64,000 nucleotides of DNA, from sequence record MW250786; one strand, 5' to 3'. Made by a program: the position numbers and the translations under genes. Positions 4,717 through 63,609 of this stretch are shown piece by piece; position 1 is the stretch's first letter, and each line of letters opens with the position of its first letter. The notes beneath the pieces were generated by a model. It was not told the origin of the DNA, searched no databases, and worked only from the letters and a program-made list of their open reading frames with translations. The stretch comes from Escherichia phage UPEC06.

Positions 4717-4779
4717 AGCTTTGAGTTTGTTGCTTTTGCTCATCTATTGTGGTAAAATAACTTTCATGGAGAAATAACC

Positions 4780-11690: not shown

Positions 11691-11728
11691 GTCCTTATTC
11701 GTGTTAAAATACTGAAAGGAGGAAACTT

Positions 11729-41117: not shown

Positions 41118-41119
41118 TT

Positions 41120-41383
41120 TTATTCTCCCTTGTTCAATGTGGATACAAATTCGATATATGTTTCTGCATTTCGCTTATGGTAAATCCGAGGATAGCTGTC
41201 GGTTACTTTGCTGTATTTGATGTATCGCTCAAGCATACCGACAATGCCACCAATGGAATGCACAACAACGCCTTCTTCACCAACAAAGGTAACAACCTCT
41301 ACGAATGGACTATTGTCATAAGAGCGATTTACAATCAGGTCGCCGACTTCAAATTCGATTTTATCATTTTGTGAGTAGTGCAT
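41120..41383 (-). CDS. hypothetical small protein
   Basis: Start at 41383 with AAAGGAGAA; longer track ORF (to 41803) would overlap the helicase gene. Confidence 0.4.
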   Translation of the reverse strand: MHYSQNDKIEFEVGDLIVNRSYDNSPFVEVVTFVGEEGVVVHSIGGIVGMLERYIKYSKVTDSYPRIYHKRNAETYIEFVSTLNKGE

Positions 41384-41448
41384 TTGTTTCTCCTTTCTGT
41401 TTGGTATGGGAGAAGTATAGGGGAGTTTAGGAGGGGTGTCAATAGAAA

Positions 41449-41467
41449 AACCGCCCGAAGGCGGTTT
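41449..41467 (-). terminator. intrinsic terminator downstream of helicase exon
   Basis: On - strand: AACCGCC-TTCG-GGCGGTT followed by TTTTCTATT. Confidence 0.5.
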
Positions 41468-41477
41468 ATTTTTAGGA

Positions 41478-42602
41478 TCAGAAAGGCGCGTCATCGTCCC
41501 AATCATCCGGCTCTGTGTCCGGCACATCAGGAATATCACCTGCGGATTCAACGATACTTTGTTGCTCCCATGTAGGTTCTTCTGAAGGTTGTTCCATTTC
41601 TTCCATAACCTTCTTGATCTCTTCCTCTTGCTCACGCAGGAAGTTATCATCCGGCTCAGGAATATCTTCCTCTTTAATATCTGAACGAGTGAGATCACTG
41701 TTTTGTTCAGACAGAGGTTGAATCTCTGCTGCCTTAGGCTTGAAGTCTGGAGAACGATGATCATCTTCTGGATGAGCGGCATACCACTCACGAAGAGTTT
41801 CATAAGGACTCTCTAAGAAGCCCTCTGGCGGTTCCAGATAATCACCCGTGTCAATGTCATAGAACACAGGGAATTTACCAGCACGACCGTGTTTACGGTC
41901 ATCCAGAATAACAAAGTAAGAAGTGTTACGTTGTTTCATCGGGAGTTCTGGATCTTTGTTACGTTCAATACCCCACATATAATAAGTGTTTCGCATCATT
42001 GCACGACTGCCAGCAAACTGCGCTGACTGGACTTGACCACCAAATTCATGAGGCTTGCCAGATTCAGGCTTATTAAGGTGACAGAAGCAATAATAAGTAA
42101 AGCCAAGTTCTTTTGCCAGCTTAGAGATCTCATCCGAGAATCGTTCCAGTTCCTGGTTAGCTTCGGAAGCACTCATACCTTGCACAAGACGAGTGATCGG
42201 GTCAATAAAGATATCTTCACAACCTTCTACAATCACTGCGTGACGGATAGCACCTTTCAGTTCATCCCATACTGCACGACCATAGTTGTTATAATAGATG
42301 ACACTATCACCAACCTCATCTGTAGCTTTGATCAGTTCTTCTTGCTTAAAGTAGCCACGTTGCCCTTCAAATACTTCATTACCCCAAATGTCACGGAAAG
42401 TTCCATCTTCTTGAGGAATCATTACCTTTTCTGCGTTAACAAAGTCTTTATGATAACGCTTACCTGCGATCTTTTTACAGGTAATTTCGTTCTCTTCTTC
42501 AAACTTAAACACCGCAGCTTTTGACTTCTCAATACCCGTGATGTGTTCAACCATTTGGTTAAGAAGTTCAGACTTGCCCATTTTCACCGTTATGTTCAGC
42601 AA
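41478..42602 (-). CDS. T7 gp4-like (DnaB-family) helicase, C-terminal part beginning inside Walker A (putative exon 2)
   Basis: Begins ...VKMGKSELL; CFCHLNKPESGKPHEFGG resembles the T7 gp4 helicase motif as recalled; acidic tail ending DDWDDDAPF. Confidence 0.7.
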   Translation of the reverse strand: MLNITVKMGKSELLNQMVEHITGIEKSKAAVFKFEEENEITCKKIAGKRYHKDFVNAEKVMIPQEDGTFRDIWGNEVFEGQRGYFKQEELIKATDEVGDSVIYYNNYGRAVWDELKGAIRHAVIVEGCEDIFIDPITRLVQGMSASEANQELERFSDEISKLAKELGFTYYCFCHLNKPESGKPHEFGGQVQSAQFAGSRAMMRNTYYMWGIERNKDPELPMKQRNTSYFVILDDRKHGRAGKFPVFYDIDTGDYLEPPEGFLESPYETLREWYAAHPEDDHRSPDFKPKAAEIQPLSEQNSDLTRSDIKEEDIPEPDDNFLREQEEEIKKVMEEMEQPSEEPTWEQQSIVESAGDIPDVPDTEPDDWDDDAPF

Positions 42603-43340
42603 GGTTCGCTACTCCTTGCCCGTTCTCTAAGAACTGCTACATGTCCCCATGCAGACCAGACTATATCTTCAACCCGTAAAACAGGTGCTATGCACTTCGA
42701 GCCGCTTGGCCCTACTCTACTCGGTTCAAGAGCTTTGCTCTTGCCTTTCGATAGTCGTTGCTCCTTCCTCTCAACCGCTTTGTAATCTCTCGAACTGTAT
42801 CGCGATGAATACCAAAATATTGTGCAATTTCTTTCTGAAGCATGGTTGTTTTAATGACCATATCATAAACTTCTTTTTCGAAATCATCATCGAATCGGTT
42901 TGGGTTTCTTCTTCCCGCTTTCCAACCGTGATCAACATTTTGCTTTGTAGTCATCCATTCTAGATTACTATCTGCGTTATTTTTCCTGTCTCTATCTTTA
43001 TGATTAACGACAGGTAGATTATAAGGATTTTCTACATAATGTTCAGCCACAAGTTGATGTATAAATCTCCTAGTGACCTTACCATTCTTACTTAATGAAA
43101 CTCTTAGATACCCTGCACTATTCGTGTCTGGCTTTAGTTTCTTAAGTTTTCGGTACACATCTCCGCGTCTGGTAATTATGTATTGTTCAAAACCCTTTAT
43201 TCTTTTCATTTCAACCTCCCTTTTAATGATAACAAAGAGGTTGAGAGGCTTGGATCAGGATTATCTGTTCTAGACTTCCCCTGAATTCACATAGTATTTA
43301 GTCGAGGCATTACTGCCAAGGCTGGCTAGACTTAATGTTT
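42585..43340 (-). mobile_element. putative group I intron carrying an HNH homing endonuclease ORF
   Basis: ~756 nt between Walker A halves; R-like CAACGACTAT (plus 42751-42760) and S-like AAGATATAGTC (plus 42659-42669) on the - strand; U before proposed 5' splice site and G before 3' splice site; boundaries +/- 3 nt. Confidence 0.6.
42712..43209 (-). CDS. HNH homing endonuclease
   Basis: GYLRVSL...HQLVAEHYVENP...VVNHKDRDRKNNADSNLEW motif set. Confidence 0.8.
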   Translation of the reverse strand: MKRIKGFEQYIITRRGDVYRKLKKLKPDTNSAGYLRVSLSKNGKVTRRFIHQLVAEHYVENPYNLPVVNHKDRDRKNNADSNLEWMTTKQNVDHGWKAGRRNPNRFDDDFEKEVYDMVIKTTMLQKEIAQYFGIHRDTVREITKRLRGRSNDYRKARAKLLNRVE

Positions 43341-44276
43341 ACCAGCACCGATGAAGTAACCTTCACCTGGACGACGACCCAAGGTAAGCTTGGTCATGGT
43401 GGGCCAAGGGAACTTCTTGCCGAGTTTAGGGATCTCATGTGCCTTTTCGCGGAACTGTGAATAAGTCGAGAAACCATCAGGCACATATTCTTTTGGCTTC
43501 ATTGCAGCCCAAAACAACTGATCAGAAAGACCTTTGTTATACATATCGCAAGGGTCCATATCTTCTGGAATATCCACGACCTTCATTTGTGGAATTACAG
43601 AGTATACCGCTGCAACTGCATCTTTACCTTTCATGATCCCTTTGGCCTTCTCTGCTTCTGTCGCACGGTCAGCATCGAAAGCTACGATAATCTCTTCAAA
43701 CTTACTCAGAAGCTTATAGTTATTCTTCTGTGATAAGTTTTGCACGGCATTTGATGTACCGTTAGAGATAGATACAACTGTGAAGTTTGGTTTACGGGTG
43801 GAACCATCCTTCGGTTTGTACTTCTCTGTCAATACCTGCCACAAGATTGCAGCATCGTATTCACCTTCAGTGATAAAGATCATACGTTTGGAAGACTTAT
43901 TTGCACCTTCCAGCCCAAACATATCACAAGCCACAGATTGGAAACCAATAGTTGTAAAGTGACCTTTCTGTTGCTTAGGGATCGTAAGATCACGCTTCTT
44001 AAAACCTACAACCTTACCTTCCAATGTGTACGGAAAATAATGCGCCTCTGGTGTCATACCGTCTTTAGCTGACAACTTGGTACGAATACCAAATCGTTTA
44101 GCTGTCTTTTCGTCGATACCACGCTCAGGGATACTTTTACACGGATAAGTCAATACGTCTTCAACTGTTTCTTCCACACGAGACACACCACCACCATAAT
44201 TACGTGCTACTGAAGCTTTAGGATTTTTATGTCCAAACTTATAACCGCCAAACAGACTTTCGCCAATAGTGCTCAT
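43332..44276 (-). CDS. DNA primase (TOPRIM) fused to N-terminal start of helicase domain (putative exon 1 ends ~43341)
   Basis: TOPRIM motifs IFITEGEYDA and FDADRA; C-terminus TLGRRPGEGYFIGAG is the first half of a Walker A segment, then KH-stop. Confidence 0.7.
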   Translation of the reverse strand: MSTIGESLFGGYKFGHKNPKASVARNYGGGVSRVEETVEDVLTYPCKSIPERGIDEKTAKRFGIRTKLSAKDGMTPEAHYFPYTLEGKVVGFKKRDLTIPKQQKGHFTTIGFQSVACDMFGLEGANKSSKRMIFITEGEYDAAILWQVLTEKYKPKDGSTRKPNFTVVSISNGTSNAVQNLSQKNNYKLLSKFEEIIVAFDADRATEAEKAKGIMKGKDAVAAVYSVIPQMKVVDIPEDMDPCDMYNKGLSDQLFWAAMKPKEYVPDGFSTYSQFREKAHEIPKLGKKFPWPTMTKLTLGRRPGEGYFIGAGKH

Positions 44277-53301: not shown

Positions 53302-53648
53302 TTTACCTCCATCATAAATACTTTAACTTTTCGTACCTCTAATCTTACTTTATTAGAGCCTTGAAGTCTATTTCTTTTTTCAATTGCGTCATTAATGTCG
53401 CCATAGAAGTAGTGATCCTTACCTATTGTTGGTATTCCATTGCCGCCTTGCATAGCCAGTGTATACATTTCTTTTCCACCTTGCAACCCTTTTGATACTT
53501 TTTCTTCAAAATATTTATTGAATTGGGTTGGTGAAGTGTCAATTTCTACATCATCTTCCCATCCCATAACTTTATCCCAAAAACGGTCAATCTTGTCAAG
53601 AACTTTGTTACTAATCTTTTTAATCTTCTTCAACATAATCTTCCCCAT
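53298..53648 (-). CDS. hypothetical protein
   Basis: ORF in operon. Confidence 0.4.
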   Translation of the reverse strand: MGKIMLKKIKKISNKVLDKIDRFWDKVMGWEDDVEIDTSPTQFNKYFEEKVSKGLQGGKEMYTLAMQGGNGIPTIGKDHYFYGDINDAIEKRNRLQGSNKVRLEVRKVKVFMMEVK

Positions 53649-54108
53649 TATTTATTTGGATACCGAAACGATTTTCATTTGAAGAAAAGAAACCCATCTT
53701 CATCCGATCAATCTCGTGTTTCATAACTTCCTGCATCGTTAATTTAAGGATTTCTTTGTTTAATTTTGGCTTAACTTCACGGAGCTTGTCAAGAAGTTTT
53801 TCCATTTCTTCTTTTACTTTTTCTTCCTCATTTTCTATCTCTAATTGGTCCATTGCATCTTTACAAACACAGCAATGGCCCACAACTCTTAAAATATGAT
53901 TTTGTATAGGTAATGCTTTTCTTCCACAATACCCACAAACAATAGACCCACCGGAGTTTCGAGCATCCACTGTCAATGTAGGTTTGGCCCCTTCTGCCTG
54001 AGAATTCCAAGTCTTTTTGCCTTGATAATCAAACATAAAGAATTCGTAGGATCTTTCATCAACGTGATCTTCGAGCATATGTAAAGTTCTTGTATTGAAA
54101 TGTTTCAT
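53620..54108 (-). CDS. Cys-rich protein (possible zinc ribbon), first gene of - strand early operon
   Basis: CGYCG...HCCVC; start abuts divergent promoter region. Confidence 0.45.
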   Translation of the reverse strand: MKHFNTRTLHMLEDHVDERSYEFFMFDYQGKKTWNSQAEGAKPTLTVDARNSGGSIVCGYCGRKALPIQNHILRVVGHCCVCKDAMDQLEIENEEEKVKEEMEKLLDKLREVKPKLNKEILKLTMQEVMKHEIDRMKMGFFSSNENRFGIQINNGEDYVEED

Positions 54109-54144
54109 TTTTAAACCCTCGTTGTTTGTATGAGCTAACTATAC

Positions 54145-54158
54145 GAGAACTTGAGAGG
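54145..54158 (+). repeat. isolated copy of GAGAACTTGAGAGG motif in divergent promoter region
   Basis: Same 14-mer core as the 4-copy array at 63079-63246. Confidence 0.5.
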
Positions 54159-54169
54159 AAGATCAATAC

Positions 54170-54197
54170 TTGATTTGTATTTTATTTTCATTATACT
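54170..54197 (+). promoter_or_regulatory. sigma70-like promoter candidate
   Basis: TTGATT-N16-TATACT about 30 nt upstream of ATG 54229. Confidence 0.4.
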
Positions 54198-54228
54198 GTG
54201 CACATCTAAAACAAGAAGGGGATAAGAA

Positions 54229-54792
54229 ATGAGTCAAGATAAAGAGTTAGCCATTGCGATATCCGTAGCTGCTTCTGCCCATGTTGACCAAGTAGATAAA
54301 GGGGGGAATATCTATATTCTTCATCCTTTGCAGGTGATGCAAACATTGCAGCAAAAGGGAAGGGAAGATTTAATGGCAGCAGGAGTTTTGCATGATGTGA
54401 TTGAAGATACTGAAATCACTATGGAACACCTCTTTAAAAAGGGGATTTCAGAAAGAACCTTAGTGATTGTCGATGCAGTGACAAAGAAACGTAAGCAATC
54501 TTCATCTGATTACCTAGAGGGGATTTTAGAGAGTGAGGGTGCTTGTCATGTTAAGCTTGCGGATCTTAAACACAACTTAGATATTCTGCGAACTTGTAGC
54601 ACCACAGAAAAAGACTTGCAACGGGTCAGGAAGTATGTAACAATGCACTTGTTGATTACGGAGATGGTTGATTGGTATGAAAGTATCGGAAGGTATCTCG
54701 ATTATTGTGATTCTTTTGCCTATTGTAGCTATCTCGACGAACGTAAAGAATTTGTTCAGAAACTTATTAAAAAATGGAAGGAGTTTAAATGA
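54229..54792 (+). CDS. HD-domain phosphohydrolase, RelA/SpoT-type (p)ppGpp hydrolase-like
   Basis: HPLQV...AAGVLHDVIEDT...VKLADLKHNL follows the Rel/Spo HD-domain pattern; 187 aa. Confidence 0.6.
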   Translation: MSQDKELAIAISVAASAHVDQVDKGGNIYILHPLQVMQTLQQKGREDLMAAGVLHDVIEDTEITMEHLFKKGISERTLVIVDAVTKKRKQSSSDYLEGILESEGACHVKLADLKHNLDILRTCSTTEKDLQRVRKYVTMHLLITEMVDWYESIGRYLDYCDSFAYCSYLDERKEFVQKLIKKWKEFK

Positions 54793-55322
54793 AAAAGGTA
54801 TTAAGTATCGAACCTTTCACAACAACATACTTTGACGATTTGGAACGTTACGGTGATTATGGGGTACAAGACGCTGATGGTTGGAAAGAATTCCCTGAAG
54901 AAACAAAAGGCCACATTACAAAGTTAGGTTGTAAGATTAATGGATCTGAACCAAAAGGTGTTTACACCATGTTTTCTTTCCTTGAAGCTATGAATCCTAC
55001 ATACAAGGGGGATAGACAATTTGGTTTTTCTTTTGCATCATTCCTTACTTGTAGTTGTGGTCATGGTGGTTGTGCGGGCTATCATGATAATGTGGTTATT
55101 CGACGTAAAAAGAATACCGTGATGGTCATGGGTAAAAAGGAAGATGGTTATGACGAAGGTGTTGTATTGACAGGTGAATCTGTTGTATACTTCGATAAAA
55201 AGCAGTGGGACGGTGTTCTAGAACACTACCTTAAACTCTTCAAAGAAAGTCCTGATGGTGTTTTTGAAGATGCGGGTTTTATGTTTACTGGTCGTTGGGG
55301 GACTAAAAATTTTTCAAAATAA
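54789..55322 (+). CDS. hypothetical protein
   Basis: ATGA overlap with HD gene; CSCGHGGCAGYHDN cluster. Confidence 0.45.
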   Translation: MKKVLSIEPFTTTYFDDLERYGDYGVQDADGWKEFPEETKGHITKLGCKINGSEPKGVYTMFSFLEAMNPTYKGDRQFGFSFASFLTCSCGHGGCAGYHDNVVIRRKKNTVMVMGKKEDGYDEGVVLTGESVVYFDKKQWDGVLEHYLKLFKESPDGVFEDAGFMFTGRWGTKNFSK

Positions 55323-55334
55323 TTTAAAAACTTG

Positions 55335-55362
55335 TTGACTTAAGAAATAGAAAAGATATACT
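55335..55362 (+). promoter_or_regulatory. sigma70-like promoter candidate
   Basis: TTGACT-N16-TATACT upstream of ATG 55393. Confidence 0.4.
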
Positions 55363-55392
55363 TATCACATCAAAAACAAGAGGAGATATAAA

Positions 55393-56622
55393 ATGCAAGA
55401 AACTTATCAACGTATGGACCAAACCATGTTCAAAAAACGTATCAGTGTTCGTGATATGGAATCACTGATTCGCCTGGGGGCTTCCATCGGAAAGACCGTA
55501 TTCTTTTTTGGTGGTGCTGGTCTTGGTAAGTCTGAAAAAGTAAAACAGATCGCTGATTCCATGTTCCCACATCGTGTAGGTAATAACCTTTGTGATGTTC
55601 GTCTGTCGGATAAAGAGCCACAAGATATCGCAGGTATTCCGATTCCGATCTCTTATCCAGATCCGAAAACTGGTAAAGAAGTCACTCGTACCGTATACGC
55701 AGTTCCAAACTTTTGGCCTACTGATCCTGATTGGGAAGGTATCGTGTTCCTGGATGAACTGCCAAATGCACCATTGGGCACTCAGCACTCTGCATATCAG
55801 GTTATTCTTGATCACGTTGCAGGTGAGCATAAGTTCCCGAAAGGTACTGTGTTTGTAGGTGCAGGTAACCGTGATACTGATGGAGCAGGGACTACTTCTA
55901 TGCCTGGTCCATTGGTTAACCGTATGATCATTGCAGAAGTTGATTATAATCTGGATGTGTGGATCGAAGACTATGCGATTCCGTTCCGTCTGCACCCGAA
56001 CATTATTGGTTTCTTGAAGCAGTTTCCAGAGCATTTCTATACTGGTGACGTAGAAAACCGAAGTACTCCGGTTTATTCATCTCCTCGTCAATGGAAAACA
56101 GCATCTGACATTCTGTACAAGTATGATGCGGGTGAGATTAATGAATTTATCGCAGAGGTTGCTCTTGCAGGTACAGTTGGTGAAGGCTTGGAAGTACAGA
56201 TCCTTGCTTATCACTTACGTGCTAAAGAACTTCCACCTATTGAAGATATCTTCAGTGGTGCAGTGGAAGAACATAAACTTGATCGCAGCAAGAACGACCT
56301 TGTTTACGTACTGGCACAAACTGGCCTTCGTCGCATGGAAGATGAAGTGATGGATAATGATATGCCGGATGATAAGTTCCTTGAACGTGCAGGTAACTTC
56401 CTTACGTTCATGTACAATAACTATTATGCGAACAACAAGGATACGATGATTGCTTTGATCTTGGGCGTGTTCCGTGGTCCAAACGATAAGCCATCTATCT
56501 TGACTGTTAACCCGAAACGTCAGAAAATGATTCCGCTTATGCGTAAGAGTTGCCCGACTGTTTCTGCCGCAGTTATGGAATACATGACTCGCTATGGTCA
56601 ACTGATTAAAGAATTCGAATAA
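55393..56622 (+). CDS. MoxR-like AAA+ ATPase
   Basis: Walker A GGAGLGKS, Walker B VFLDEL. Confidence 0.7.
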   Translation: MQETYQRMDQTMFKKRISVRDMESLIRLGASIGKTVFFFGGAGLGKSEKVKQIADSMFPHRVGNNLCDVRLSDKEPQDIAGIPIPISYPDPKTGKEVTRTVYAVPNFWPTDPDWEGIVFLDELPNAPLGTQHSAYQVILDHVAGEHKFPKGTVFVGAGNRDTDGAGTTSMPGPLVNRMIIAEVDYNLDVWIEDYAIPFRLHPNIIGFLKQFPEHFYTGDVENRSTPVYSSPRQWKTASDILYKYDAGEINEFIAEVALAGTVGEGLEVQILAYHLRAKELPPIEDIFSGAVEEHKLDRSKNDLVYVLAQTGLRRMEDEVMDNDMPDDKFLERAGNFLTFMYNNYYANNKDTMIALILGVFRGPNDKPSILTVNPKRQKMIPLMRKSCPTVSAAVMEYMTRYGQLIKEFE

Positions 56623-56626
56623 TCTC

Positions 56627-56655
56627 TTGACAACGAAAAACAGTTAACTTAATAT
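56627..56655 (+). promoter_or_regulatory. sigma70-like promoter candidate
   Basis: TTGACA-N17-TAATAT upstream of ATG 56703. Confidence 0.35.
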
Positions 56656-56702
56656 AAGGGCATCTCGAAAGAGGTGTCCTTTTTTAATTTGGAGAAAATG
56701 AA

Positions 56703-58235
56703 ATGGCAAAACTGACGATTGAAGAAAGTAACATGATTGAAATGCAAGTCTCTGAAGCGGAACGTATCATTGAGGCTGCTAGTCTACAACTGATGCGTTT
56801 TAAACCCTTCTACGGGGTGATGCTTTCGTCTATGCCTGTTAAAAAGGCAACTGAGTGGTGCAGTACAATGGCGACTGATGGACGCAACCTATACTATCAT
56901 CCAGAATTCATTGCAGGTATGACAGAAGAACGTAAAAAATTAGTACTCGATCGACTTTCCAAATCTGAGTCCGATCCTAAAAAGCTTAAAGAGGCAACTG
57001 AATTTATTAATGTTTTTTATCGACGGAAGACCGCTCGTGAAGTTGCACTTATTCTTGAGCATGAATGTGATCATGTGATCTCTGATCACGCCTCTCGCGG
57101 TAAAGGATTTAATCATGAACTTTACAACATTGCAGCGGATCATCGTATCAATACAACGGCTGTGCTTATTCACCAGAAAGGGGATGAGTTAGGTAAAGCC
57201 TGGTTCCCTGCCGGAGAGAGAACGGTATTTGATAAGAATGCTGAATTTGGATTTATGGCCTGGTCTTATTGTGACTTCCGATTCAAAGATATGTATACAG
57301 AGCAAATCTATGAAATCTTAAATAAAGAGCAGGACGATAAAGAAAAATCCAAAGGGGAAGGTTCTGGAAGTGGAAAAGGAGATGGTGAAGAAGGTGATCA
57401 AGGCCGTAAAGGTGTTGATCAGCACATGGACCCAAATGGTGATCCAGAAGATTCAGAAGATGATAGTATCGAAGATGCACTCGGAATCGACCGTAAAGCG
57501 AAACCTAAGCAAACAGCAGAGGAACGCCAATATAACGATGGGGTTATGCGTCGAGCCATTGAGAATGCCGTACAGGCAGCAGGAAGCGGTGCACCGGAAG
57601 ATGCACGACGTTTTGTAGAGGCGGCAGGTAAACCAAAGATTAACTATCTTCGTTTGTTGCGTAAAACTATTGAACGTCTGTTCAAAGATGATGTATCATA
57701 TCGTCGTTTGTCACGCCGTAGTCACTCGTTAACTCGGACTCTCCGTAGCTCAGGTTACTTGTCTGGACGACAAACAATTGGTTTACCATCAAAGAATAAA
57801 CAGAAGACTATCCGTGCAGGTGTTTTCTTTGATGTGTCGGGATCATTTAACGATGAACTGTTAAGACCAACAATGCGTGAGATTCGTGGATTGTGTAATC
57901 TTTACGACGAGTTTGAGGTCACGATGGCTTGCTGGTCAACAAAGGTTGGTAACATTGAAACGTATACGAAGAAGAATGTGAATGAGATTGCTAACTATAA
58001 GATCAAGACCACATTTGGTACGGATGTTTCTTGTGTGTTTGAAGCATTAGATGAAATGAAAGACCCTATGGATCAGATCATCATCTATACTGACGGTTAC
58101 TTTGCTGATGTATCCCAAAAGAAAGATTGGGCCAAAAAGTATGGTAAGAATGTTCTTTGGATCATCCTGGGTCGTGGGTCTTCGTTCAATCCACCTTTTG
58201 GTAAAGCCATTGATTTTGACAAGTATCTTAAATAA
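56703..58235 (+). CDS. HExxH metallopeptidase-like + VWA domain protein
   Basis: HECDH motif in N-half; MIDAS-like FFDVSGS in C-half; directly follows the AAA+ gene. Confidence 0.6.
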   Translation: MAKLTIEESNMIEMQVSEAERIIEAASLQLMRFKPFYGVMLSSMPVKKATEWCSTMATDGRNLYYHPEFIAGMTEERKKLVLDRLSKSESDPKKLKEATEFINVFYRRKTAREVALILEHECDHVISDHASRGKGFNHELYNIAADHRINTTAVLIHQKGDELGKAWFPAGERTVFDKNAEFGFMAWSYCDFRFKDMYTEQIYEILNKEQDDKEKSKGEGSGSGKGDGEEGDQGRKGVDQHMDPNGDPEDSEDDSIEDALGIDRKAKPKQTAEERQYNDGVMRRAIENAVQAAGSGAPEDARRFVEAAGKPKINYLRLLRKTIERLFKDDVSYRRLSRRSHSLTRTLRSSGYLSGRQTIGLPSKNKQKTIRAGVFFDVSGSFNDELLRPTMREIRGLCNLYDEFEVTMACWSTKVGNIETYTKKNVNEIANYKIKTTFGTDVSCVFEALDEMKDPMDQIIIYTDGYFADVSQKKDWAKKYGKNVLWIILGRGSSFNPPFGKAIDFDKYLK

Positions 58236-58244
58236 GGGGGATCT

Positions 58245-58616
58245 TTGAGCGAGTATACTTACAAGTTATCAGTTGGTAGGCGTGGTGTAGTTATGACTAT
58301 CAACATGATTAATGAAAGTGCGGAGGCTGTAAAATGGTGGGCCTCCACCTTTAACGGGAAAGGTTTTACTTTATCTCGCCATAAGATTGGATCAGGAAAG
58401 CCGATAGATCTTGTAAAGGAAGACACTTTCCTGTATCCTGATCGTATTGCTGATGAAGATATTGATTTCCTGTCTGCTACGGTTGGTAGTCTGTTAGATG
58501 AGGAGCCAGATATTGTAAGGTTGCTCTCTTTGCTTACCGCAATGTGGTCAGCAGGTCATGATGAGGAAAGTATGCATACGATGGTAAGGAATACGTTGAG
58601 ACGTTGGTCTAAGTAA
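58245..58616 (+). CDS. hypothetical protein
   Basis: TTG start 9 nt after upstream stop. Confidence 0.4.
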   Translation: MSEYTYKLSVGRRGVVMTINMINESAEAVKWWASTFNGKGFTLSRHKIGSGKPIDLVKEDTFLYPDRIADEDIDFLSATVGSLLDEEPDIVRLLSLLTAMWSAGHDEESMHTMVRNTLRRWSK

Positions 58617-58775
58617 CAACATTTCCTTTATGCCCATTTAGGCATACAATACTATATTAGATGATAAACCCCTCAACCTGCTCGGTTGCTTCGACGGGGT
58701 TTATATATCTATTAAAAAATTAACCACACTCACATTCGTTCGGTACTTAATTTTTTAAGTCACCACAAAATTGTG

Positions 58776-58804
58776 TTGACACCACAATCAAACAGGTGTA
58801 GAGT
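58776..58804 (+). promoter_or_regulatory. sigma70-like promoter candidate
   Basis: TTGACA-N17-TAGAGT upstream of 58937 gene. Confidence 0.35.
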
Positions 58805-58936
58805 TAACAAGAGAAGGAAAGTTAATTGGATAAGTTTTACATATACTGTCTAACATTGGGATTGATCTTCATGATTGTTGGATCAGTGGGTAAAGTTTTA
58901 CTCAATAGTTTTGGAATTTATTAAGAGGAGATCGTA

Positions 58937-59179
58937 ATGAGAGTACGTCAACATCGTGGTACATTGATCGAAAGTTTGAAAACTGTTAAACAGATTGAAG
59001 GTACAAAACAAGCTCTTGTGGATCATATCAACAAAGAGTTAGGTAAACCGTTTAACTTCTCTGTTGATTCGATCAGCATTGTGGAAAAAGGAGTTGATGA
59101 GCGTATCAACTGGAACAACCATCTGATCCTGATTGATGGATTTGGTGTATTTGGTTATTGTGATCAACATCCTGTTTAA
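58937..59179 (+). CDS. hypothetical small protein
   Basis: AGGAG RBS. Confidence 0.4.
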   Translation: MRVRQHRGTLIESLKTVKQIEGTKQALVDHINKELGKPFNFSVDSISIVEKGVDERINWNNHLILIDGFGVFGYCDQHPV

Positions 59180-59299
59180 GAGGTGGTTATGGCTATTAAA
59201 TGGTGGTTGTTTGTAGTTCCTGCAAATGATAATGCAGGCGGTGATGGTAAACGTGCAGTCGCACAAACCTATGTCTATGGTCGTCATTAAGGAGTTATT

Positions 59300-59707
59300 A
59301 TGGATGCTTTTTTGAGTATTGTGTTTGCACTGACAGTGGTTGATTGGGTATTTATCGGTATCTATCTACTCTGTATTCCTTTTGTGATCTGGTTTTACAT
59401 TGACCTTTTGGCAGGTACTGGCAAAGTAACTGGAATGGACTACTTCATGTTTGTTGTTGTGATTCTCATGGGGCCTTTAGCCTTGTTGTCTTTCCTTATT
59501 GCAAACATTGTGGTAAGAGGGGGCGCTATCAAACAAACTGTTCTTTTAAAGGTGAGTAGAACTGATATTGGTAAGAAGATCATTGTCTGGAACATTACAC
59601 GTAAGCTTAAAAAGACCAATACCAAATGGGTTAATCCTTTAGAACGAGCCGTTCAGAAACGTCACAAAGTCTTATTGGAGAGAAAACATGGGAAACGAAA
59701 TCCGTAA
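59300..59707 (+). CDS. membrane protein
   Basis: Three hydrophobic segments. Confidence 0.45.
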   Translation: MDAFLSIVFALTVVDWVFIGIYLLCIPFVIWFYIDLLAGTGKVTGMDYFMFVVVILMGPLALLSFLIANIVVRGGAIKQTVLLKVSRTDIGKKIIVWNITRKLKKTNTKWVNPLERAVQKRHKVLLERKHGKRNP

Positions 59708-59848
59708 AATCAAGTGGAAGTTTTGGGAATACGCATTGGTTGTCGCTGGATATCTTTTCGGCTACAATCATGAGGTATACTATGGCGTAAAGCATAATCG
59801 AAACATGGCGTACTTCGCGTGGAAGTTTCCAGAGCGTAAGGAAAAGAA

Positions 59849-60370
59849 ATGAAAGTCACAGAAAGCTTAGTTAAAAAGGTTCGAATAGAAGAACTCCAGG
59901 AAGAAAGGCTCGATCCTATCGAGGTTATCATTGAGAACTATGATAATGGTAGAGGTAAGATCATAATCACCTCCGGCGGTGAGTCCTGGGTAGGCCAATG
60001 GAATGCGATGGGAGGGAGTGTAGAATCCTTTATCCAACGTGTCGATAATGACTACCTCATAGGGTGTATGGGGCGAGCACCTAAGTTCATTGAAGATAAA
60101 GATCAGGACCCTGTTTTCATTAAGAAGATGATCTTGAAGCAACGCCGGACCGATTCAATAACTAAAGGGCAGGCGAGATGGGCTTGGGATTATACGGAGA
60201 CGTTTGCCCCTGACCGTGATCATATCCTTCATGGGGTTCCTTTTGCGCTTCAACCCCTGAGGGAGTTAGAAGAACCTTGGTATCTGGACTGGCCCACAAA
60301 AATCAATACAGATTATACTTATCAAAGTAAAATCCTGGATGTTGTTCGTAAAGTAATAAAGCCAAATTAA
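59849..60370 (+). CDS. hypothetical protein
   Basis: 173 aa ORF. Confidence 0.45.
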   Translation: MKVTESLVKKVRIEELQEERLDPIEVIIENYDNGRGKIIITSGGESWVGQWNAMGGSVESFIQRVDNDYLIGCMGRAPKFIEDKDQDPVFIKKMILKQRRTDSITKGQARWAWDYTETFAPDRDHILHGVPFALQPLRELEEPWYLDWPTKINTDYTYQSKILDVVRKVIKPN

Positions 60371-60445
60371 TCACAAGAAGGGGTTGACGAGTGTCGCCCC
60401 TTGATTTAAACTTCAGTTATCGAAAGAAAGAGAGGAATCTAGATA

Positions 60446-60661
60446 ATGACTAAGCTTGTAACTTACGTGTTCGAAGGTGATGCTGTACCAACTGAATTTT
60501 TTGAAGATGTTTACAGCAATGATCGTGGAGTGGAACCTTTAAAGGTTTTACTTGTTGATGTTACCAACTATGGTGATGATATCGAAGTCACAGTGCAAGG
60601 AACAACCCAACAAGTCATTGATGAACGTATGAAGTATTGGGCACTGTTGCTGAAAAAATAA
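60446..60661 (+). CDS. hypothetical small protein
   Basis: GAGAGGAA RBS. Confidence 0.4.
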   Translation: MTKLVTYVFEGDAVPTEFFEDVYSNDRGVEPLKVLLVDVTNYGDDIEVTVQGTTQQVIDERMKYWALLLKK

Positions 60662-60692
60662 AAAGTTATTTTAAATTACATAGGAGAAAGAA

Positions 60693-61313
60693 ATGGCTAT
60701 CTATGCAAAACTGAAAGAAAGTAAGAAAAGTTATTTTATTTCAATGGACCCATCTAACCGACGTATGATTGAAAATCATGGTGATCGCTTCATTGTACGA
60801 CCTTCCGAGAATAACGATTCTTACTTACGTCCGGTGGGTCCACGTATTGAGGGTCAGTTCTTAACATCCCGAGATATCGAAGAGTATTTTACATTCTTCC
60901 CTGAATGGTCAGCAGAGTCAGCAGAATACATCGTTAACCTAGCGATCCCAAGGGGTAGCGTTGCTATTGATGATCAGTATCTGCTGGGGGATAAATGGGG
61001 TGACTACAAGATCAAAACAAGTCATCCAAATATGTGGCGACTGTATAACTCCGATAATCCTGACGATTATGTTATGCTTAAGCAAAGTAATTTGGAGAAA
61101 TACTTCACCTTACAGGAAGATAGCTTAAAGAAAGCATTGGCTAAGTTTGACAATTACACACCTGCACCTGTAGAAAAAGAACAGGAAGTTGTAGATACGG
61201 ATGTTTTTGAATTGAAGATTAAACGCACAGTAAGGGTTAAGGATGCAGAAATCACAGAGGACAATCTGGATCAGTTCATTGCACAGCTTACTAAACTGGT
61301 TAAAGGAGAATAA
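60693..61313 (+). CDS. hypothetical protein
   Basis: AGGAGAAAG RBS. Confidence 0.45.
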   Translation: MAIYAKLKESKKSYFISMDPSNRRMIENHGDRFIVRPSENNDSYLRPVGPRIEGQFLTSRDIEEYFTFFPEWSAESAEYIVNLAIPRGSVAIDDQYLLGDKWGDYKIKTSHPNMWRLYNSDNPDDYVMLKQSNLEKYFTLQEDSLKKALAKFDNYTPAPVEKEQEVVDTDVFELKIKRTVRVKDAEITEDNLDQFIAQLTKLVKGE

Positions 61314-61316
61314 AAG

Positions 61317-61631
61317 ATGATTATCGATCAAAGAACGCAAGTAGTTATTGACAAGACTTTCAGTGTACGTAAAAGTATCATTGCAGACATTAGTCTTGAG
61401 CGTATGACCGAAGAGGGTATTGATACTTCTGTAAACTACCCCTTGATGGAAGAAGACTTCCTACGTAAAATTATGAAACAGGGTTTTACCGACCATGTTC
61501 AGATAGAGACGAACAAAGATATGTGGTTAGTCTTTAAACTGTCTGCCGATACTGATCACGAACAAGAATTCAATGCGGCATTGGCCTGGATTCTTAAATA
61601 CTGTGATGACAATGACCTAGAGGTAATGTAA
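61317..61631 (+). CDS. hypothetical protein
   Basis: Tightly spaced after upstream gene. Confidence 0.4.
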   Translation: MIIDQRTQVVIDKTFSVRKSIIADISLERMTEEGIDTSVNYPLMEEDFLRKIMKQGFTDHVQIETNKDMWLVFKLSADTDHEQEFNAALAWILKYCDDNDLEVM

Positions 61632-61858
61632 TGTACAAGCTTCCAAAGAACTTTCGATTCTATCGTGATCTGAAATTAAAGACTGTACTGTTTGTCGAGA
61701 ATTTAGAGTTGGAGGAGTTTTATGGTTTTGAATGGTATGAAGGGGATATGGGAGAGATGAACCTCAAGAATGTTCTCGAATTTTGGGGCAATGATGATGG
61801 GGAAGGATACAGCCCCACTCCAAAACACGAGCTTTCCCTTGTTGAGATCAGAGACTAA
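61631..61858 (+). CDS. hypothetical small protein
   Basis: ATGTAATG overlap with upstream gene. Confidence 0.4.
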   Translation: MYKLPKNFRFYRDLKLKTVLFVENLELEEFYGFEWYEGDMGEMNLKNVLEFWGNDDGEGYSPTPKHELSLVEIRD

Positions 61859-61963
61859 CAAAATAAGGGGTCTAAACAGGCCCCTGTAAGCATAAACAAG
61901 TACAAGACGATAAATGACCTTACCAAAGATAAAAGGTCCTCACAAACGCATACAGGAGCTTAC

Positions 61964-62782
61964 ATGGCCTACCGTAAATTTGACCCACTGATCATTTATG
62001 AAGTTGTCCCAATGAGTATAGCCAACCCTCATGGTTTGCAATCACCTACTCCACTTGATCATAAAACAATGATCAGGAATGCAGAGTACACTTTAAGAGA
62101 TCTAGAGAATGAGGAGATTGAAAGTGCTGTGCATGGGTTGAAAGACCTGATCCGTGAACTTGATACGGATGATTCTGTTCAAGAATATATTGAAAAGTCA
62201 GAGGCACTAATCACGAAGTTTCATGAATACCGCACTAAGGTATCTCGTATTCTTGATGAAGCTTTTGATCCTTCATTAAAAGACCCGATAAAGGATGACA
62301 AAGCAATACTCTTGCTTAGTCAAATAGCTGACGCTACTGACAACATGGACCCTGGTTTTGTAAGAGCTGATCATACCTGTGTAGATCAGTTTCCTTTAGC
62401 TTATCTTAAATCCAAAAAGGCATTCGGTAGTCTGGCTTTTGTCTGGGAGTATGAGAAAGATTCCCTTACTCGTTACATCAATCGGGTAGGTAAGAAAGAT
62501 ATTTCAGTTACATTGAACATCTTCTCTGACGGTTCTTTGATGGTTCATAACAACTGGACAAAAGAAAGTATCCTCTTTGGTAAAGAAAGAGATCAGAAAT
62601 TTAAACTGGTAAACTATATCCGTTTCGCAACAGAGGATAGTAAAATGGGTAAGTCATTTAAAGAGGAGGACTTTAAAACTTTCTTTGAAGACTGGCTTTC
62701 CCCAACAGAAGAAGAGATCCAACTATTCAAAGCTGTGAATGGGGATGTTTCGTTCGACCTGTACACACTCTTTAACGAGTGA
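61964..62782 (+). CDS. hypothetical protein
   Basis: 272 aa; last gene before the repeat region. Confidence 0.45.
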   Translation: MAYRKFDPLIIYEVVPMSIANPHGLQSPTPLDHKTMIRNAEYTLRDLENEEIESAVHGLKDLIRELDTDDSVQEYIEKSEALITKFHEYRTKVSRILDEAFDPSLKDPIKDDKAILLLSQIADATDNMDPGFVRADHTCVDQFPLAYLKSKKAFGSLAFVWEYEKDSLTRYINRVGKKDISVTLNIFSDGSLMVHNNWTKESILFGKERDQKFKLVNYIRFATEDSKMGKSFKEEDFKTFFEDWLSPTEEEIQLFKAVNGDVSFDLYTLFNE

Positions 62783-62900
62783 TATTTGTTCGCTGAAACA
62801 AATTCAAATTTCAGATCCAAAATATATTTGAGATATTTCCCTGTGATATTTGTTTCATGGGGAATTTTCAGATTTCAATTTGAAATTCTATTTGAGATAA
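62780..62900. repeat. imperfect ~60-bp tandem direct repeat (2 units)
   Basis: Both units start TGATATTTGTT and share AAATTTCAGAT/AATTTTCAGAT and TATTTGAGATA. Confidence 0.55.
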
Positions 62901-62963
62901 ATTTAAGACTCCTGCCACCGTGCCCCCTCCATACTGTGTCATTCCTGCATACCTGCACCACTA

Positions 62964-62978
62964 GATCAACTTAGTTGA
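62964..62978. repeat. inverted repeat ATCAACT-T-AGTTGAT (operator-like)
   Basis: 7-bp arms, 1-nt spacer. Confidence 0.4.
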
Positions 62979-63078
62979 TGCCCCTTCTTACAGACTCACC
63001 CTCCAGATTCAATACGTTACTGTTCCAGTATACCTGTGATACAAAGCAAACATACGACACTAGTGACCAAAATAATTT

Positions 63079-63246
63079 GAGAACTTGAGGGGTTTTTCAT
63101 TTTTAAGATCGTAACCTGAAAGCTGTTCACGAGAACTTGAGAGGTTTTTCGATACAGCGATTAGGAACTTGAGAGGTTTTTCATTTTTGAGTTTGCATTT
63201 GAAATTGAGAACTTGAGCTACAGGCCAGATACTTGAGGGGTTTTTC
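63079..63246 (+). repeat. array of 4 direct copies (+1 partial) of 20-bp motif GAGAACTTGAGRGGTTTTTC
   Basis: Copies at 63079-63098, 63131-63150, 63163-63182, 63228-63246; partial 63207-63217; irregular spacing 32-65 bp; AT-rich flank. Confidence 0.65.
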
Positions 63247-63609
63247 AAATTTCAGTTTCATTTCAAAATTGAAAAATTTTTTATATGCACAAAAATATAG
63301 GGCTTGTCAAGGTCTTTGATAAGAAATTTTCAGGAGGTGAGAATTATTCTCATTTGCAGAATAACGGGCAGGGGTGGTGATTGCTTCGTGAAACCGTCCT
63401 CATCACCATGAATATATAATAGCACCGTTTTTGATTAGAAAGCAACAACATTTTAAAAATATTTTTCGGTAAATTTTGGGCGAGCTACCGGCGATCCACC
63501 TTACAACCTGGCGGCGATGCCTGGTATGTTAGCCCCGCCTTTACGCCGTGGGGATGGCGATTGTTTTCCTATGTAAGCATTATGGCCCCTGGCGGGGCCG
63601 TTGTCAACA

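Follow-up and report, generated by a model that had tools for sequence, protein, structure and literature searches.

In the Certrevirus phages CB7, CR3, CR8 and CR9, a putative sigma-70-like early promoter has been described with the consensus AAAA(N3)TGTTGAC(N19)TATAAT (Buttimer et al. 2020, PMC7344957). For phage rV5, 33 sigma-70 promoters and a bidirectional promoter pair, spread across the whole genome, were reported (Kropinski et al. 2013, PMC3606486); the Srd-like protein gp11 of this phage was proposed to be an anti-sigma factor or RNA polymerase modifier. Promoter-early stem-loop cassettes (PeSLs) have been described in the T4-like phages RB49/phi1, PST and nt-1 (Arbiol et al. 2010, PMC2839356; Comeau et al. 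2014, PMC4122927), and the early promoters of T4 itself form a class that was defined experimentally (Hinton 2010, PMC2988021). The paper describing Septuagintavirus contains no promoter analysis. We analysed 64,000 nucleotides of Escherichia phage UPEC06 (record MW250786; hereafter the window), a Septuagintavirus-like coliphage of the Vequintavirinae that shows 93-97% identity to phages LTH01, A7_1, A73 and W70. A + strand transcribed module, extending from an HD hydrolase homologue through small ORFs (54229..62782), contains four sites, P1 to P4, that judging from their sequence are very probably genuine promoters of the sigma-70 type, built as compact cassettes and recognised by E. coli RNA polymerase in its unmodified form. 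Published work already covers sigma-70-like promoters in rV5 and in Certrevirus; because the feature has been described for sister genera, the finding is correct but ordinary.

Promoter sites and genes of the module

The original prediction had placed four -35/-10 motifs upstream of genes of this module, and a motif scan found all of them exactly at the places given. We showed that P1-P4 all lie in intergenic DNA on the sense strand, that their -35 hexamers are near TTGACA and include TTG, that positions 2 and 6 of their -10 hexamers are A and T, and that the spacing is 16, 16, 17 and 17 nt; start sites and promoter strength are what we infer from these elements. P1 (54170..54197, + strand) joins TTGATT (54170-54175) to TATACT (54192-54197) by a 16-nt spacer and, with 9/12 consensus matches, is the weakest of P1-P4; its predicted start is the A at 54204, and downstream lie the gene for the HD-domain hydrolase (54229) and the 54789 ORF. 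A divergent partner on the - strand (54138..54166; TTGATC, 17-nt spacer, TATAGT), with a predicted start at the A at 54131, precedes the gene 54108..53620 on that strand. Its -35 hexamer and that of P1 make the palindrome GATCAAtacTTGAT, and P1 and this back-to-back promoter for the - strand genes would occupy one 120-bp region. P2 (55326..55362, + strand) reads AAAA-N3-TG-TTGACT (TTGACT at 55335-55340), a 16-nt spacer and TATACT (55357-55362), matching the consensus at 10/12 positions, with a predicted start at the A at 55369 ahead of the ATPase gene (55393). P3 (56627..56655, + strand; TTGACA 56627-56632, 17-nt spacer, TAATAT 56650-56655; 10/12) is predicted to start at the A at 56662, upstream of the DUF2201/VWA gene (56703), and P4 (58767..58804, + strand; AAAA-N3-TG-TTGACA with TTGACA at 58776-58781, 17-nt spacer, TAGAGT 58799-58804; 10/12) at the G at 58811. 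The -10 hexamers of P3 and P4 match at only 4/6 positions, and the extended -10 TG is present in none of P1-P4. A fifth promoter, P5 (60384-60412, + strand; TTGACG, 17-nt spacer, TAAACT), has a hairpin around its -35 (60378-60402), a predicted start at the A at 60419 and the same leader as the other cassettes. The distance from -10 to ATG is uniform, about 30 nt, with a common A/C-rich, ATCAAAACAAGAGGAG-like leader, and each cassette ends 3' in a ribosome-binding site and start codon; in 5/6 cases the predicted +1 is CA. The set first proposed therefore stands for P1-P4, but it left out P5, the divergent partner of P1 and the terminators that split the module.

The module begins with the HD small-alarmone-hydrolase homologue (54229-54792), followed by phrog_8242 (54789-55322), the ATPase gene (55393-56622) and the gene for the DUF2201 metallopeptidase/VWA protein (56703-58235), all on the + strand. 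The genes downstream of P1-P4 were called independently by GenBank annotators in 4 close relatives, and in LTH01, A7_1, A73 and W70, the closest annotated relatives examined, every module gene carries the label "hypothetical". Neither Pfam at relaxed thresholds nor sequence searches of the PDB assigned a function to the ATPase, to phrog_8242, ORF123 and ORF80, or to the first gene on the - strand. The HD-domain protein has a (p)ppApp hydrolase as its best solved-structure match (E 6e-22); a host-directed function is plausible for this first gene only, and the host-takeover role once suggested for the module is weak. The genes expected after the motifs were confirmed at 54229, 55393 and 56703. 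For P4, in contrast to the gene at 58937 named originally, the first ORF of the unit is probably an unannotated hydrophobic ORF of 32 aa (58826-58924, + strand), which has a TTG start and an AAGGA ribosome-binding site. In W70 its changes are synonymous or hydrophobic-to-hydrophobic, and it is absent from Certrevirus.

Enrichment and conservation of the hexamers

Across the window, sense intergenic DNA contains 7 matches of at least 10/12, against 0.69 +/- 0.85 expected from 500 dinucleotide shuffles, of which 0/500 reached 7; the antisense strand of the same intergenic regions contains zero matches at this threshold. In the four P1-P4 regions, 3 matches of at least 10/12 were found where 0.22 are expected (p ~0.0015). 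In addition, the upstream half of the published Certrevirus consensus, AAAANNNTGTTGAC, was found at 3 places (P2, P4 and 63607-) against 0.11 expected, and TTGACA, although scarcer overall than expected (39 vs 56.7 +/- 7), is concentrated in sense intergenic DNA.

We then compared the sites with those of relatives. In five Septuagintavirus genomes, 1/72 hexamer columns is variable against 56/482 other intergenic columns (p = 0.0024), a count slightly inflated by local-alignment ends; P2 is invariant in close relatives, and the P5 hexamers are kept in 4 relatives with a varying spacer. The 54229..62782 module is syntenic in the sister genus Certrevirus, where P1-P4 have positional orthologues whose hexamers are kept and whose spacers have diverged beyond alignment; these orthologous sites precede the hydrolase, ATPase, DUF2201/VWA and 80-aa ORF genes (POP15, CR8, CR9 and L010-L014). 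The P1 orthologues, of the form TTGnnT-16/17-TAnnnT, occupy the same place in POP15, CR8, CR9 and L011-L014, with poor -10s in Certrevirus (TACTTT, TACCTT); the T-rich P1 spacer GTATTTTTGTTCATG is unusually conserved, and the divergent partner is conserved in POP15, CR8 and CR9 as TTGATY-17-TATAGT. The P2 orthologues of Certrevirus read TTGACW-16-TATAAT. At P3, where the comparison was anchored on the hexamers because a MAFFT alignment placed the window sequence out of register, TTGACA is unchanged across 7 lineages, and in CR8 and CR9 it overlaps the stop codon of the ATPase gene; the -10 of other lineages is TAAAAT, TAGAAT or TATAGT, and in L010 it is eroded to GATCAT inside the stem of the adjoining terminator. 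At P4, AAATTGTnTTGACAC is conserved in POP15, CR8 and CR9, with TATCTT or TATGCT as the -10. The conserved blocks ACAATACTATATTAGAT and CTCACATTCGTTCGG upstream of P4 were considered as a second promoter class, but each is unique in the window and they are therefore not one. In Seunavirus SSE121 and Vequintavirus JeffSchatz, synteny of the ATPase region is broken and positional orthology could not be extended to them; sigma-70-like sites were also seen in these two phages, one of the sites with a spacer hairpin.

Compared with the published Certrevirus promoter, the present sites belong to the same subfamily, to a syntenic module and to orthologous promoter positions; P2 and P4 fit the AAAA-N3-TG-TTGAC half exactly, and each set clusters among short ORFs and some of the replication genes. 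They differ in that P1 and P3 are devoid of the AAAA-N3-TG extension, that the -10s are further from TATAAT and that the genus is Septuagintavirus; both sets are predicted. Enrichment, orientation, fixed distance to the start codon and hexamers kept across two genera all support transcription by the host RNA polymerase, as had been proposed from the letters alone.

Terminators and hairpins at the promoters

We identified two terminators on the + strand of the module. T1 (56656..56687), an intrinsic terminator with an 11-bp stem, a GAAA loop and a T run, begins with the base that follows the P3 -10; since P3 abuts T1, the predicted P3 start falls inside the T1 5' arm. RNA from this predicted start is unable to form T1, which folds only in read-through RNA, in 7/7 lineages, and the T1 stem is conserved in Certrevirus though its sequence has changed. 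T2 (58655..58714), a long hairpin with the core AAACCCC/GGGGTTT followed by a U-rich tract, lies at the end of the P3 unit; the region 58610-58775 folds with z = -4.8, and POP15, CR8 and CR9 carry an equivalent hairpin. We propose that each cassette would comprise an A/T-rich upstream tract, the -35, a 16-17 nt spacer, the -10 and a start A seven bases past the -10, and in its 3' part a short A/C-rich leader and then the start codon about 30 nt past the -10. The five cassettes P1-P5 and the two terminators would split the 54-63 kb + strand module into overlapping units. The P1 unit would cover the hydrolase and the ORF at 54789 and, as it has no terminator, read on into the next; the P2 unit would cover the ATPase and end at T1, the P3 unit the DUF2201/VWA protein and the ORF at 58245 and end at T2, the P4 unit the small ORFs up to 60370, and the P5 unit the remainder of the module. 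P2-derived RNA would hold the whole T1 hairpin and stop, while P3-started RNA would begin within the 5' arm and read through, thereby uncoupling the expression of two neighbouring genes.

A GC-rich hairpin is present at 6/11 such promoters in the window, against 0.13 expected, and lies within or abutting the core promoter at P3 (T1), at P5 and at four other window promoters. Like PeSLs, these cassettes combine a near-consensus sigma-70 promoter, A/T-rich on its upstream side, with a 3'-terminal ribosome-binding site and start codon, and at those six promoters a GC-rich stem-loop lies between -35 and -10, over the -10 or adjacent. Unlike PeSLs, they come from an unrelated phage lineage, no convincing hairpin was seen at P1, P2 or P4 (relatives of the phage break the 5-bp P4 stem), the hairpins overlapping a -10, at 26917-, 52525- and 47902-, have no U run, and what the copies have in common is limited to the hexamers and some 20 nt of leader, whereas PeSL copies share about 100 bp. 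Tentatively, Vequintavirinae may use PeSL-like promoter/stem-loop cassettes as transcriptional insulators, each small gene block being autonomous, and possibly as landing pads for gene gain (HNH, ORF71). Under such an arrangement the hairpin would always lie upstream of or across the predicted start and so act only on RNA from upstream; P3/T1, with its start inside the 5' arm and covarying stems conserved across two genera, would exemplify this rule. Both indels in the ~17 kb compared, two cases only, sit just 3' of cassettes (an HNH gene that follows P3/T1 in A7_1, and ORF71, which follows P5), and no evidence of recombination between window cassettes was found. Rfam gave no match for the whole window at gathering thresholds or for 54-64 kb at E <= 1, and thus the long intergenic regions are not accounted for by any known RNA family. 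Separately, the best promoter of the window (63607-) is followed by about 330 nt with no ORF; taken as a possible non-coding RNA, this stretch proved not unusually structured (z = 0.2).

Could these sites be something other than sigma-70-type promoters? A loose consensus scan matches everywhere (65 in 18 kb vs 47.5 expected) and 32/39 strong window matches lie inside genes, as might be said in favour of P1-P4 being chance matches in AT-rich intergenic DNA; the strong matches, however, are about tenfold enriched in sense intergenic DNA with zero antisense, the hexamers are conserved across genera and the extended consensus fits, so that enrichment, hexamer conservation and extended-consensus counts already contradict chance, which we hold to be extremely improbable. 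For P3 taken singly, TAATAT might be the A/T-rich flank of T1 and TTGACA an incidental product of how the gene ends; read-through from P2 would then express the DUF2201/VWA gene. That the -10 directly adjoins the hairpin, matches at only four positions of six and is eroded inside the stem in L010 would agree with this, as would the A/T-rich flanks common upstream of terminators. It is nevertheless quite improbable, because TTGACA stays invariant in the 7 lineages, 16-17 nt from TAnnnT, while the spacer changes, the stop codon shifts position and the terminator differs in sequence, and because without P3 a strong terminator would separate two conserved partner genes. At P1, a promoter must exist within the 120 bp because the flanking genes diverge, and one may ask whether the module is started in 54109-54228 by another element, either a factor-dependent promoter on the conserved T-rich stretch or another hexamer pair. 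Such an element, which we consider improbable, would account for the modest consensus score of P1 and the poor Certrevirus -10s, and the unusually conserved spacer is a place where another factor could act; yet the key sigma-70 positions (TTG at -35; T, A and final T at -10) are conserved with constant spacing, and P1 has the same geometry to leader and ATG as the other cassettes. Reading P1-P4 as sigma-70-type promoters is the explanation we retain.

Timing of expression and meaning for the family

The original prediction also assigned the module to an early expression class, which is plausible from the distribution of the sites. The late motif is absent from the module, and between the genes of the tail block (1-25 kb) there are zero such promoters, the rV5-type late motif TGGTAAAATA being found there instead; the cassettes are most frequent beside short-ORF clusters, as is typical of early regions. 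These features argue against a module that has real sigma-70-type promoters but is not specifically early, being early and middle or constitutive, with timing set elsewhere, for example by a phage anti-sigma factor or RNA polymerase modifier; the window likewise contains no homologue of the Vequintavirus 'anti-sigma factor'. This alternative is unlikely, but it draws on the occurrence of the same promoter type among the replication genes of the window (41442-, 26917-), on the early, possibly middle use suggested by the CB7 authors (PMC7344957) and on the genome-wide spread of the rV5 promoters (PMC3606486). Promoter type by itself does not fix timing, and we found no transcriptome or transcript data for any Vequintavirinae phage in the literature; for P1-P4 as sigma-70-type promoters, we infer early and possibly also middle use.

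The locus resembles rV5 in its sigma-70-like consensus, in the bidirectional promoter pair at a divergent gene junction and in the late motif TggTAaAAtA, also found in the tail block of the window (4750, 11702); it differs in genus and in gene order around the ATPase. With the early promoters of T4 it shares host sigma-70 promoters and A/T-rich UP-like upstream sequence in a large virulent myovirus with no RNA polymerase of its own, but the early timing here is predicted, and no T4-type regulators were identified in the window. The current understanding of phage transcription is unchanged by these results. They provide a usable predicted transcription map (five promoters, two terminators and predicted starts) for an otherwise unannotated module and extend the Certrevirus promoter set to Septuagintavirus at orthologous positions, and the promoter-inside-terminator of P3 is a compact, conserved design that could serve phage engineering.

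Promoter motifs of the + strand module

The four -35/-10 pairs of the original prediction (P1-P4), assigned to the module of + strand genes at 54229-62782, were all found exactly as written: P1 (TTGATT 54170-54175, 16-nt spacer, TATACT 54192-54197; 9/12 consensus match), P2 (TTGACT 55335-55340, 16-nt spacer, TATACT 55357-55362; 10/12), P3 (TTGACA 56627-56632, 17-nt spacer, TAATAT 56650-56655; 10/12) and P4 (TTGACA 58776-58781, 17-nt spacer, TAGAGT 58799-58804; 10/12), each on the + strand. All are intergenic; genes called independently in four annotated relatives confirm where each region starts and ends. Scanning with a loose consensus gives much noise (65 matches versus 47.5 expected in 18 kb), and 32 of the 39 matches of at least 10/12 in the whole window are intragenic; the promoter signal becomes visible only once match position and orientation are taken into account. 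Sense intergenic DNA (3.9 kb) holds seven strong matches versus 0.69 +/- 0.85 in 500 dinucleotide shuffles, none of which reached seven; the opposite strand of these regions holds no strong match. For the P1-P4 regions, three strong matches were counted against 0.22 expected (p ~0.0015, shuffles). TTGACA is rarer than expected in the window (39 copies versus 56.7 +/- 7) yet 8 of these 39 copies are in sense intergenic DNA, as would be seen if selection removes spurious promoters and retains real ones. Three copies of the extended motif AAAANNNTGTTGAC are present (0.11 expected): at P2, at P4 and at a - strand promoter at 63607. The proposal that host RNA polymerase reads these promoters is well supported by the sequence evidence.

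Over the 5.2 kb around P1-P4, the window shares 93-97% identity with the Escherichia phages vB_EcoM-LTH01, A7_1, A5-4, A73 and W70, described as the new clade Septuagintavirus in the Vequintavirinae (PMC11370258); the clade paper contains no promoter analysis. Across five Septuagintavirus genomes, variation affects 1 of the 72 columns in hexamers and 56 of the 482 elsewhere in intergenic DNA (p = 0.0024, one-sided Fisher test); alignment ends make the latter count slightly too high. The sister genus Certrevirus (POP15, CR8, CR9 and five IMG/VR contigs) carries the same module, with an ATPase 68-75% identical. Its intergenic DNA is otherwise unalignable with that of the window, and positional counterparts exist for all four promoters: TTGnnT-16/17-TAnnnT for P1, TTGACW-16-TATAAT for P2, a -10 of TAAAAT, TAGAAT or TATAGT for P3, and AAATTGTnTTGACAC with a -10 of TATCTT or TATGCT for P4. 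The P3 TTGACA is unchanged in seven lineages; in CR8 and CR9 it overlaps the stop codon of the ATPase gene. The case for P1 is the weakest of the four; because its T-rich spacer is conserved too, an additional factor may act there.

Back to back with P1, upstream of the first - strand gene, lies a divergent partner (TTGATC-17-TATAGT, 54166..54138, -), kept in Certrevirus as TTGATY-17-TATAGT; the two -35 hexamers together form the palindrome GATCAAtacTTGAT. Bidirectional promoters at a divergent junction are likewise reported in rV5, of the same subfamily (PMC3606486). A fifth module promoter, P5 (TTGACG-17-TAAACT, 60384-60412, +), carries the common leader; its hexamers are conserved and its spacer is variable. 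ORF71 (60446-60661), found in the window and A7_1, is missing in LTH01, A73 and W70, where P5 directly drives a 206-aa ORF. At P1, P2, P5, the P1 partner and several - strand promoters, position 7 past the -10 is A, usually in a CA context; the predicted P4 start is G. In most cassettes (promoter core, leader and start codon), an A/C-rich leader such as ATCAAAACAAGAGGAG leads to a start codon ~30 nt past the -10, the exceptions being P3 (47 nt) and P4 (21 nt).

Terminators and hairpins at the promoters

Within the module we identified two + strand terminators, T1 (56656-56687, 11-bp stem) and T2 (58655-58714). The T1 stem starts at the base following the P3 -10 (56655), so that the predicted P3 start (A 56662) falls inside the T1 5' arm. 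In predicted folding across seven of seven lineages, read-through RNA forms T1 (total -17 to -23 kcal/mol) and RNA from the predicted P3 start is unable to; between genera the stem sequence has changed and pairing is retained. We infer that P2 transcripts would end at T1 and P3 transcripts would get past it, an arrangement that would uncouple the ATPase from its partner gene. T2 lies in a region (58610-58775) of fold z = -4.8. In the structured 3' region 58617-58775, the stem of a small hairpin (58629-58646) differs from that of POP15 by a compensatory change (ATGCC/GGCAT here, GTGCC/GGCAC there). The region also has a conserved 17-mer, ACAATACTATATTAGAT, and a 15-mer, CTCACATTCGTTCGG, kept in Certrevirus and ~35 nt 5' of the P4 -35; both are single-copy in the window.

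Of the 11 sigma-70-like promoter cores of the window, 6 contain a GC-rich hairpin with 6 bp or more, whereas shuffling predicts 0.13; the background rate in 75-nt windows is 8.9%. The hairpin spans the -10 at the - strand promoters 26917, 47902 and 52525, occupies the spacer at 63607 (-) and P5, and directly follows the -10 at P3. At a seventh promoter (TTGACA-17-TATACT, 41442..41414, -; region 41118-41477), the terminator AAACCGCCttcgGGCGGTTT ends 5 nt 5' of the -35, and an unannotated ORF with the common leader starts near 41377 (-). In the Certrevirus P2 orthologue the -10 sits in the loop of GGCCCAT/ATGGGCC, the stem being compensated in CR9 (GGGCCAT/ATGGCCC). Since the predicted start lies past or within the hairpin in every hairpin cassette, the hairpins should be foldable only in RNA arriving from upstream.

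These cassettes match the description of the promoter-early stem-loop (PeSL) cassettes of T4-like phages, which have near-consensus sigma-70 promoters, an A/T-rich upstream region, a ribosome-binding site at the 3' end and a stem-loop placed either across the -10 or between it and the -35 (PMC2839356; PMC4122927). Both promoter and terminator activity were shown by experiment for PeSLs (PMC2839356; PMC4122927). Unlike PeSLs, the window copies share just the hexamers and a short leader, and no U run accompanies their -10-overlapping hairpins. That cassettes mediate gene shuffling in these phages has thin evidence behind it, namely two indels between close relatives, each immediately 3' of a cassette: ORF71 after P5 and an HNH gene after P3/T1 in A7_1.

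Gene content around the promoters

The window comprises a + strand tail-gene block (sheath, tape measure, baseplate, fibres; 1-25 kb), a - strand region with DNA polymerase, methyltransferase, primase/helicase, Dda-like helicase and many short ORFs (25-54 kb), and the + strand module carrying P1-P5 (54.2-62.8 kb). The primase/helicase (phrog_239) is in two ORFs (43332-44276 and 41478-42602, -) matching successive profile parts, with a 165-aa ORF (42712-43209, -) between them, which suggests an intron or homing-endonuclease insertion; insertions of this kind are reported for several genes of CB7, of the same subfamily (PMC7344957).

On its + strand, the module encodes an HD-domain protein, a phrog_8242 protein, an ATPase (phrog_1297; MoxR-like in annotations of relatives), a DUF2201 metallopeptidase/VWA protein and a run of small ORFs. 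The top solved-structure match of the HD-domain protein is a (p)ppApp hydrolase (7smg, E 6e-22), followed by Rel/SpoT hydrolase domains and MESH1. The proposed host-takeover role draws on a single gene, this alarmone-hydrolase homologue; no role is assigned to the other module products. The DUF2201/VWA ribosome-binding site and start codon are separated in A7_1 and A5-4 by an inserted HNH homing endonuclease gene (L001 8699-9193). P4 does lie upstream of gene 58937, which it was said to precede, but the first ORF downstream is probably an unannotated hydrophobic one of 32 aa (58826-58924; MDKFYIYCLTLGLIFMIVGSVGKVLLNSFGIY). Its frame is kept in close relatives, the W70 differences being synonymous or conservative, and it has no counterpart in Certrevirus.

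Where the module meets - strand genes lies a repeat-rich, apparently non-coding stretch (62779-63280), with four direct repeats of ACTTGAGRGGTTTTTC (63083, 63135, 63167, 63231; 0.11 expected; conserved in four relatives) and a second repeat of 2 x 57 nt (62779-62899). The 'ORF' 63060-63248 (-), a hypothetical protein in relatives' annotation, is filled by repeats. The LTH01 record begins at about the equivalent of this stretch, which may be a replication origin or genome end. Nearby, within 63249-63609 (-), is the window's best consensus promoter (TTGACA-17-CATAAT, 63607..63579, -; spacer hairpin GGCCCC/GGGGCC). The ~330 nt downstream of it contain no ORF longer than 33 aa and no Rfam match, and their fold is not unusual (z = 0.2).

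Timing of expression within the subfamily

Sigma-70-like promoters in the Vequintavirinae are already established predictions: 33 are reported for rV5, plus a separate late motif, TggTAaAAtA, resembling the T4 late promoter TATAAATA (PMC3606486), and CB7 has no RNA polymerase gene of its own (PMC7344957). The observation of P1-P4 is correct yet ordinary, as this kind of promoter is known. The module is likely to be expressed early, as its promoters had suggested; this timing stays unproven, because the same promoter type also occurs among replication genes and we found no transcript data on Vequintavirinae phages in the literature. Upstream of tail genes, the rV5-type late motif occurs at 4750-4759 (TGGTAAAATA, exact) and 11702-11711 (TGTTAAAATA, one mismatch); it has no copy in the 54.2-62.8 kb module, and no sigma-70-type cassette was found in tail-block intergenic DNA. 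In this distribution of the two motif types, the window fits the published picture of the subfamily.
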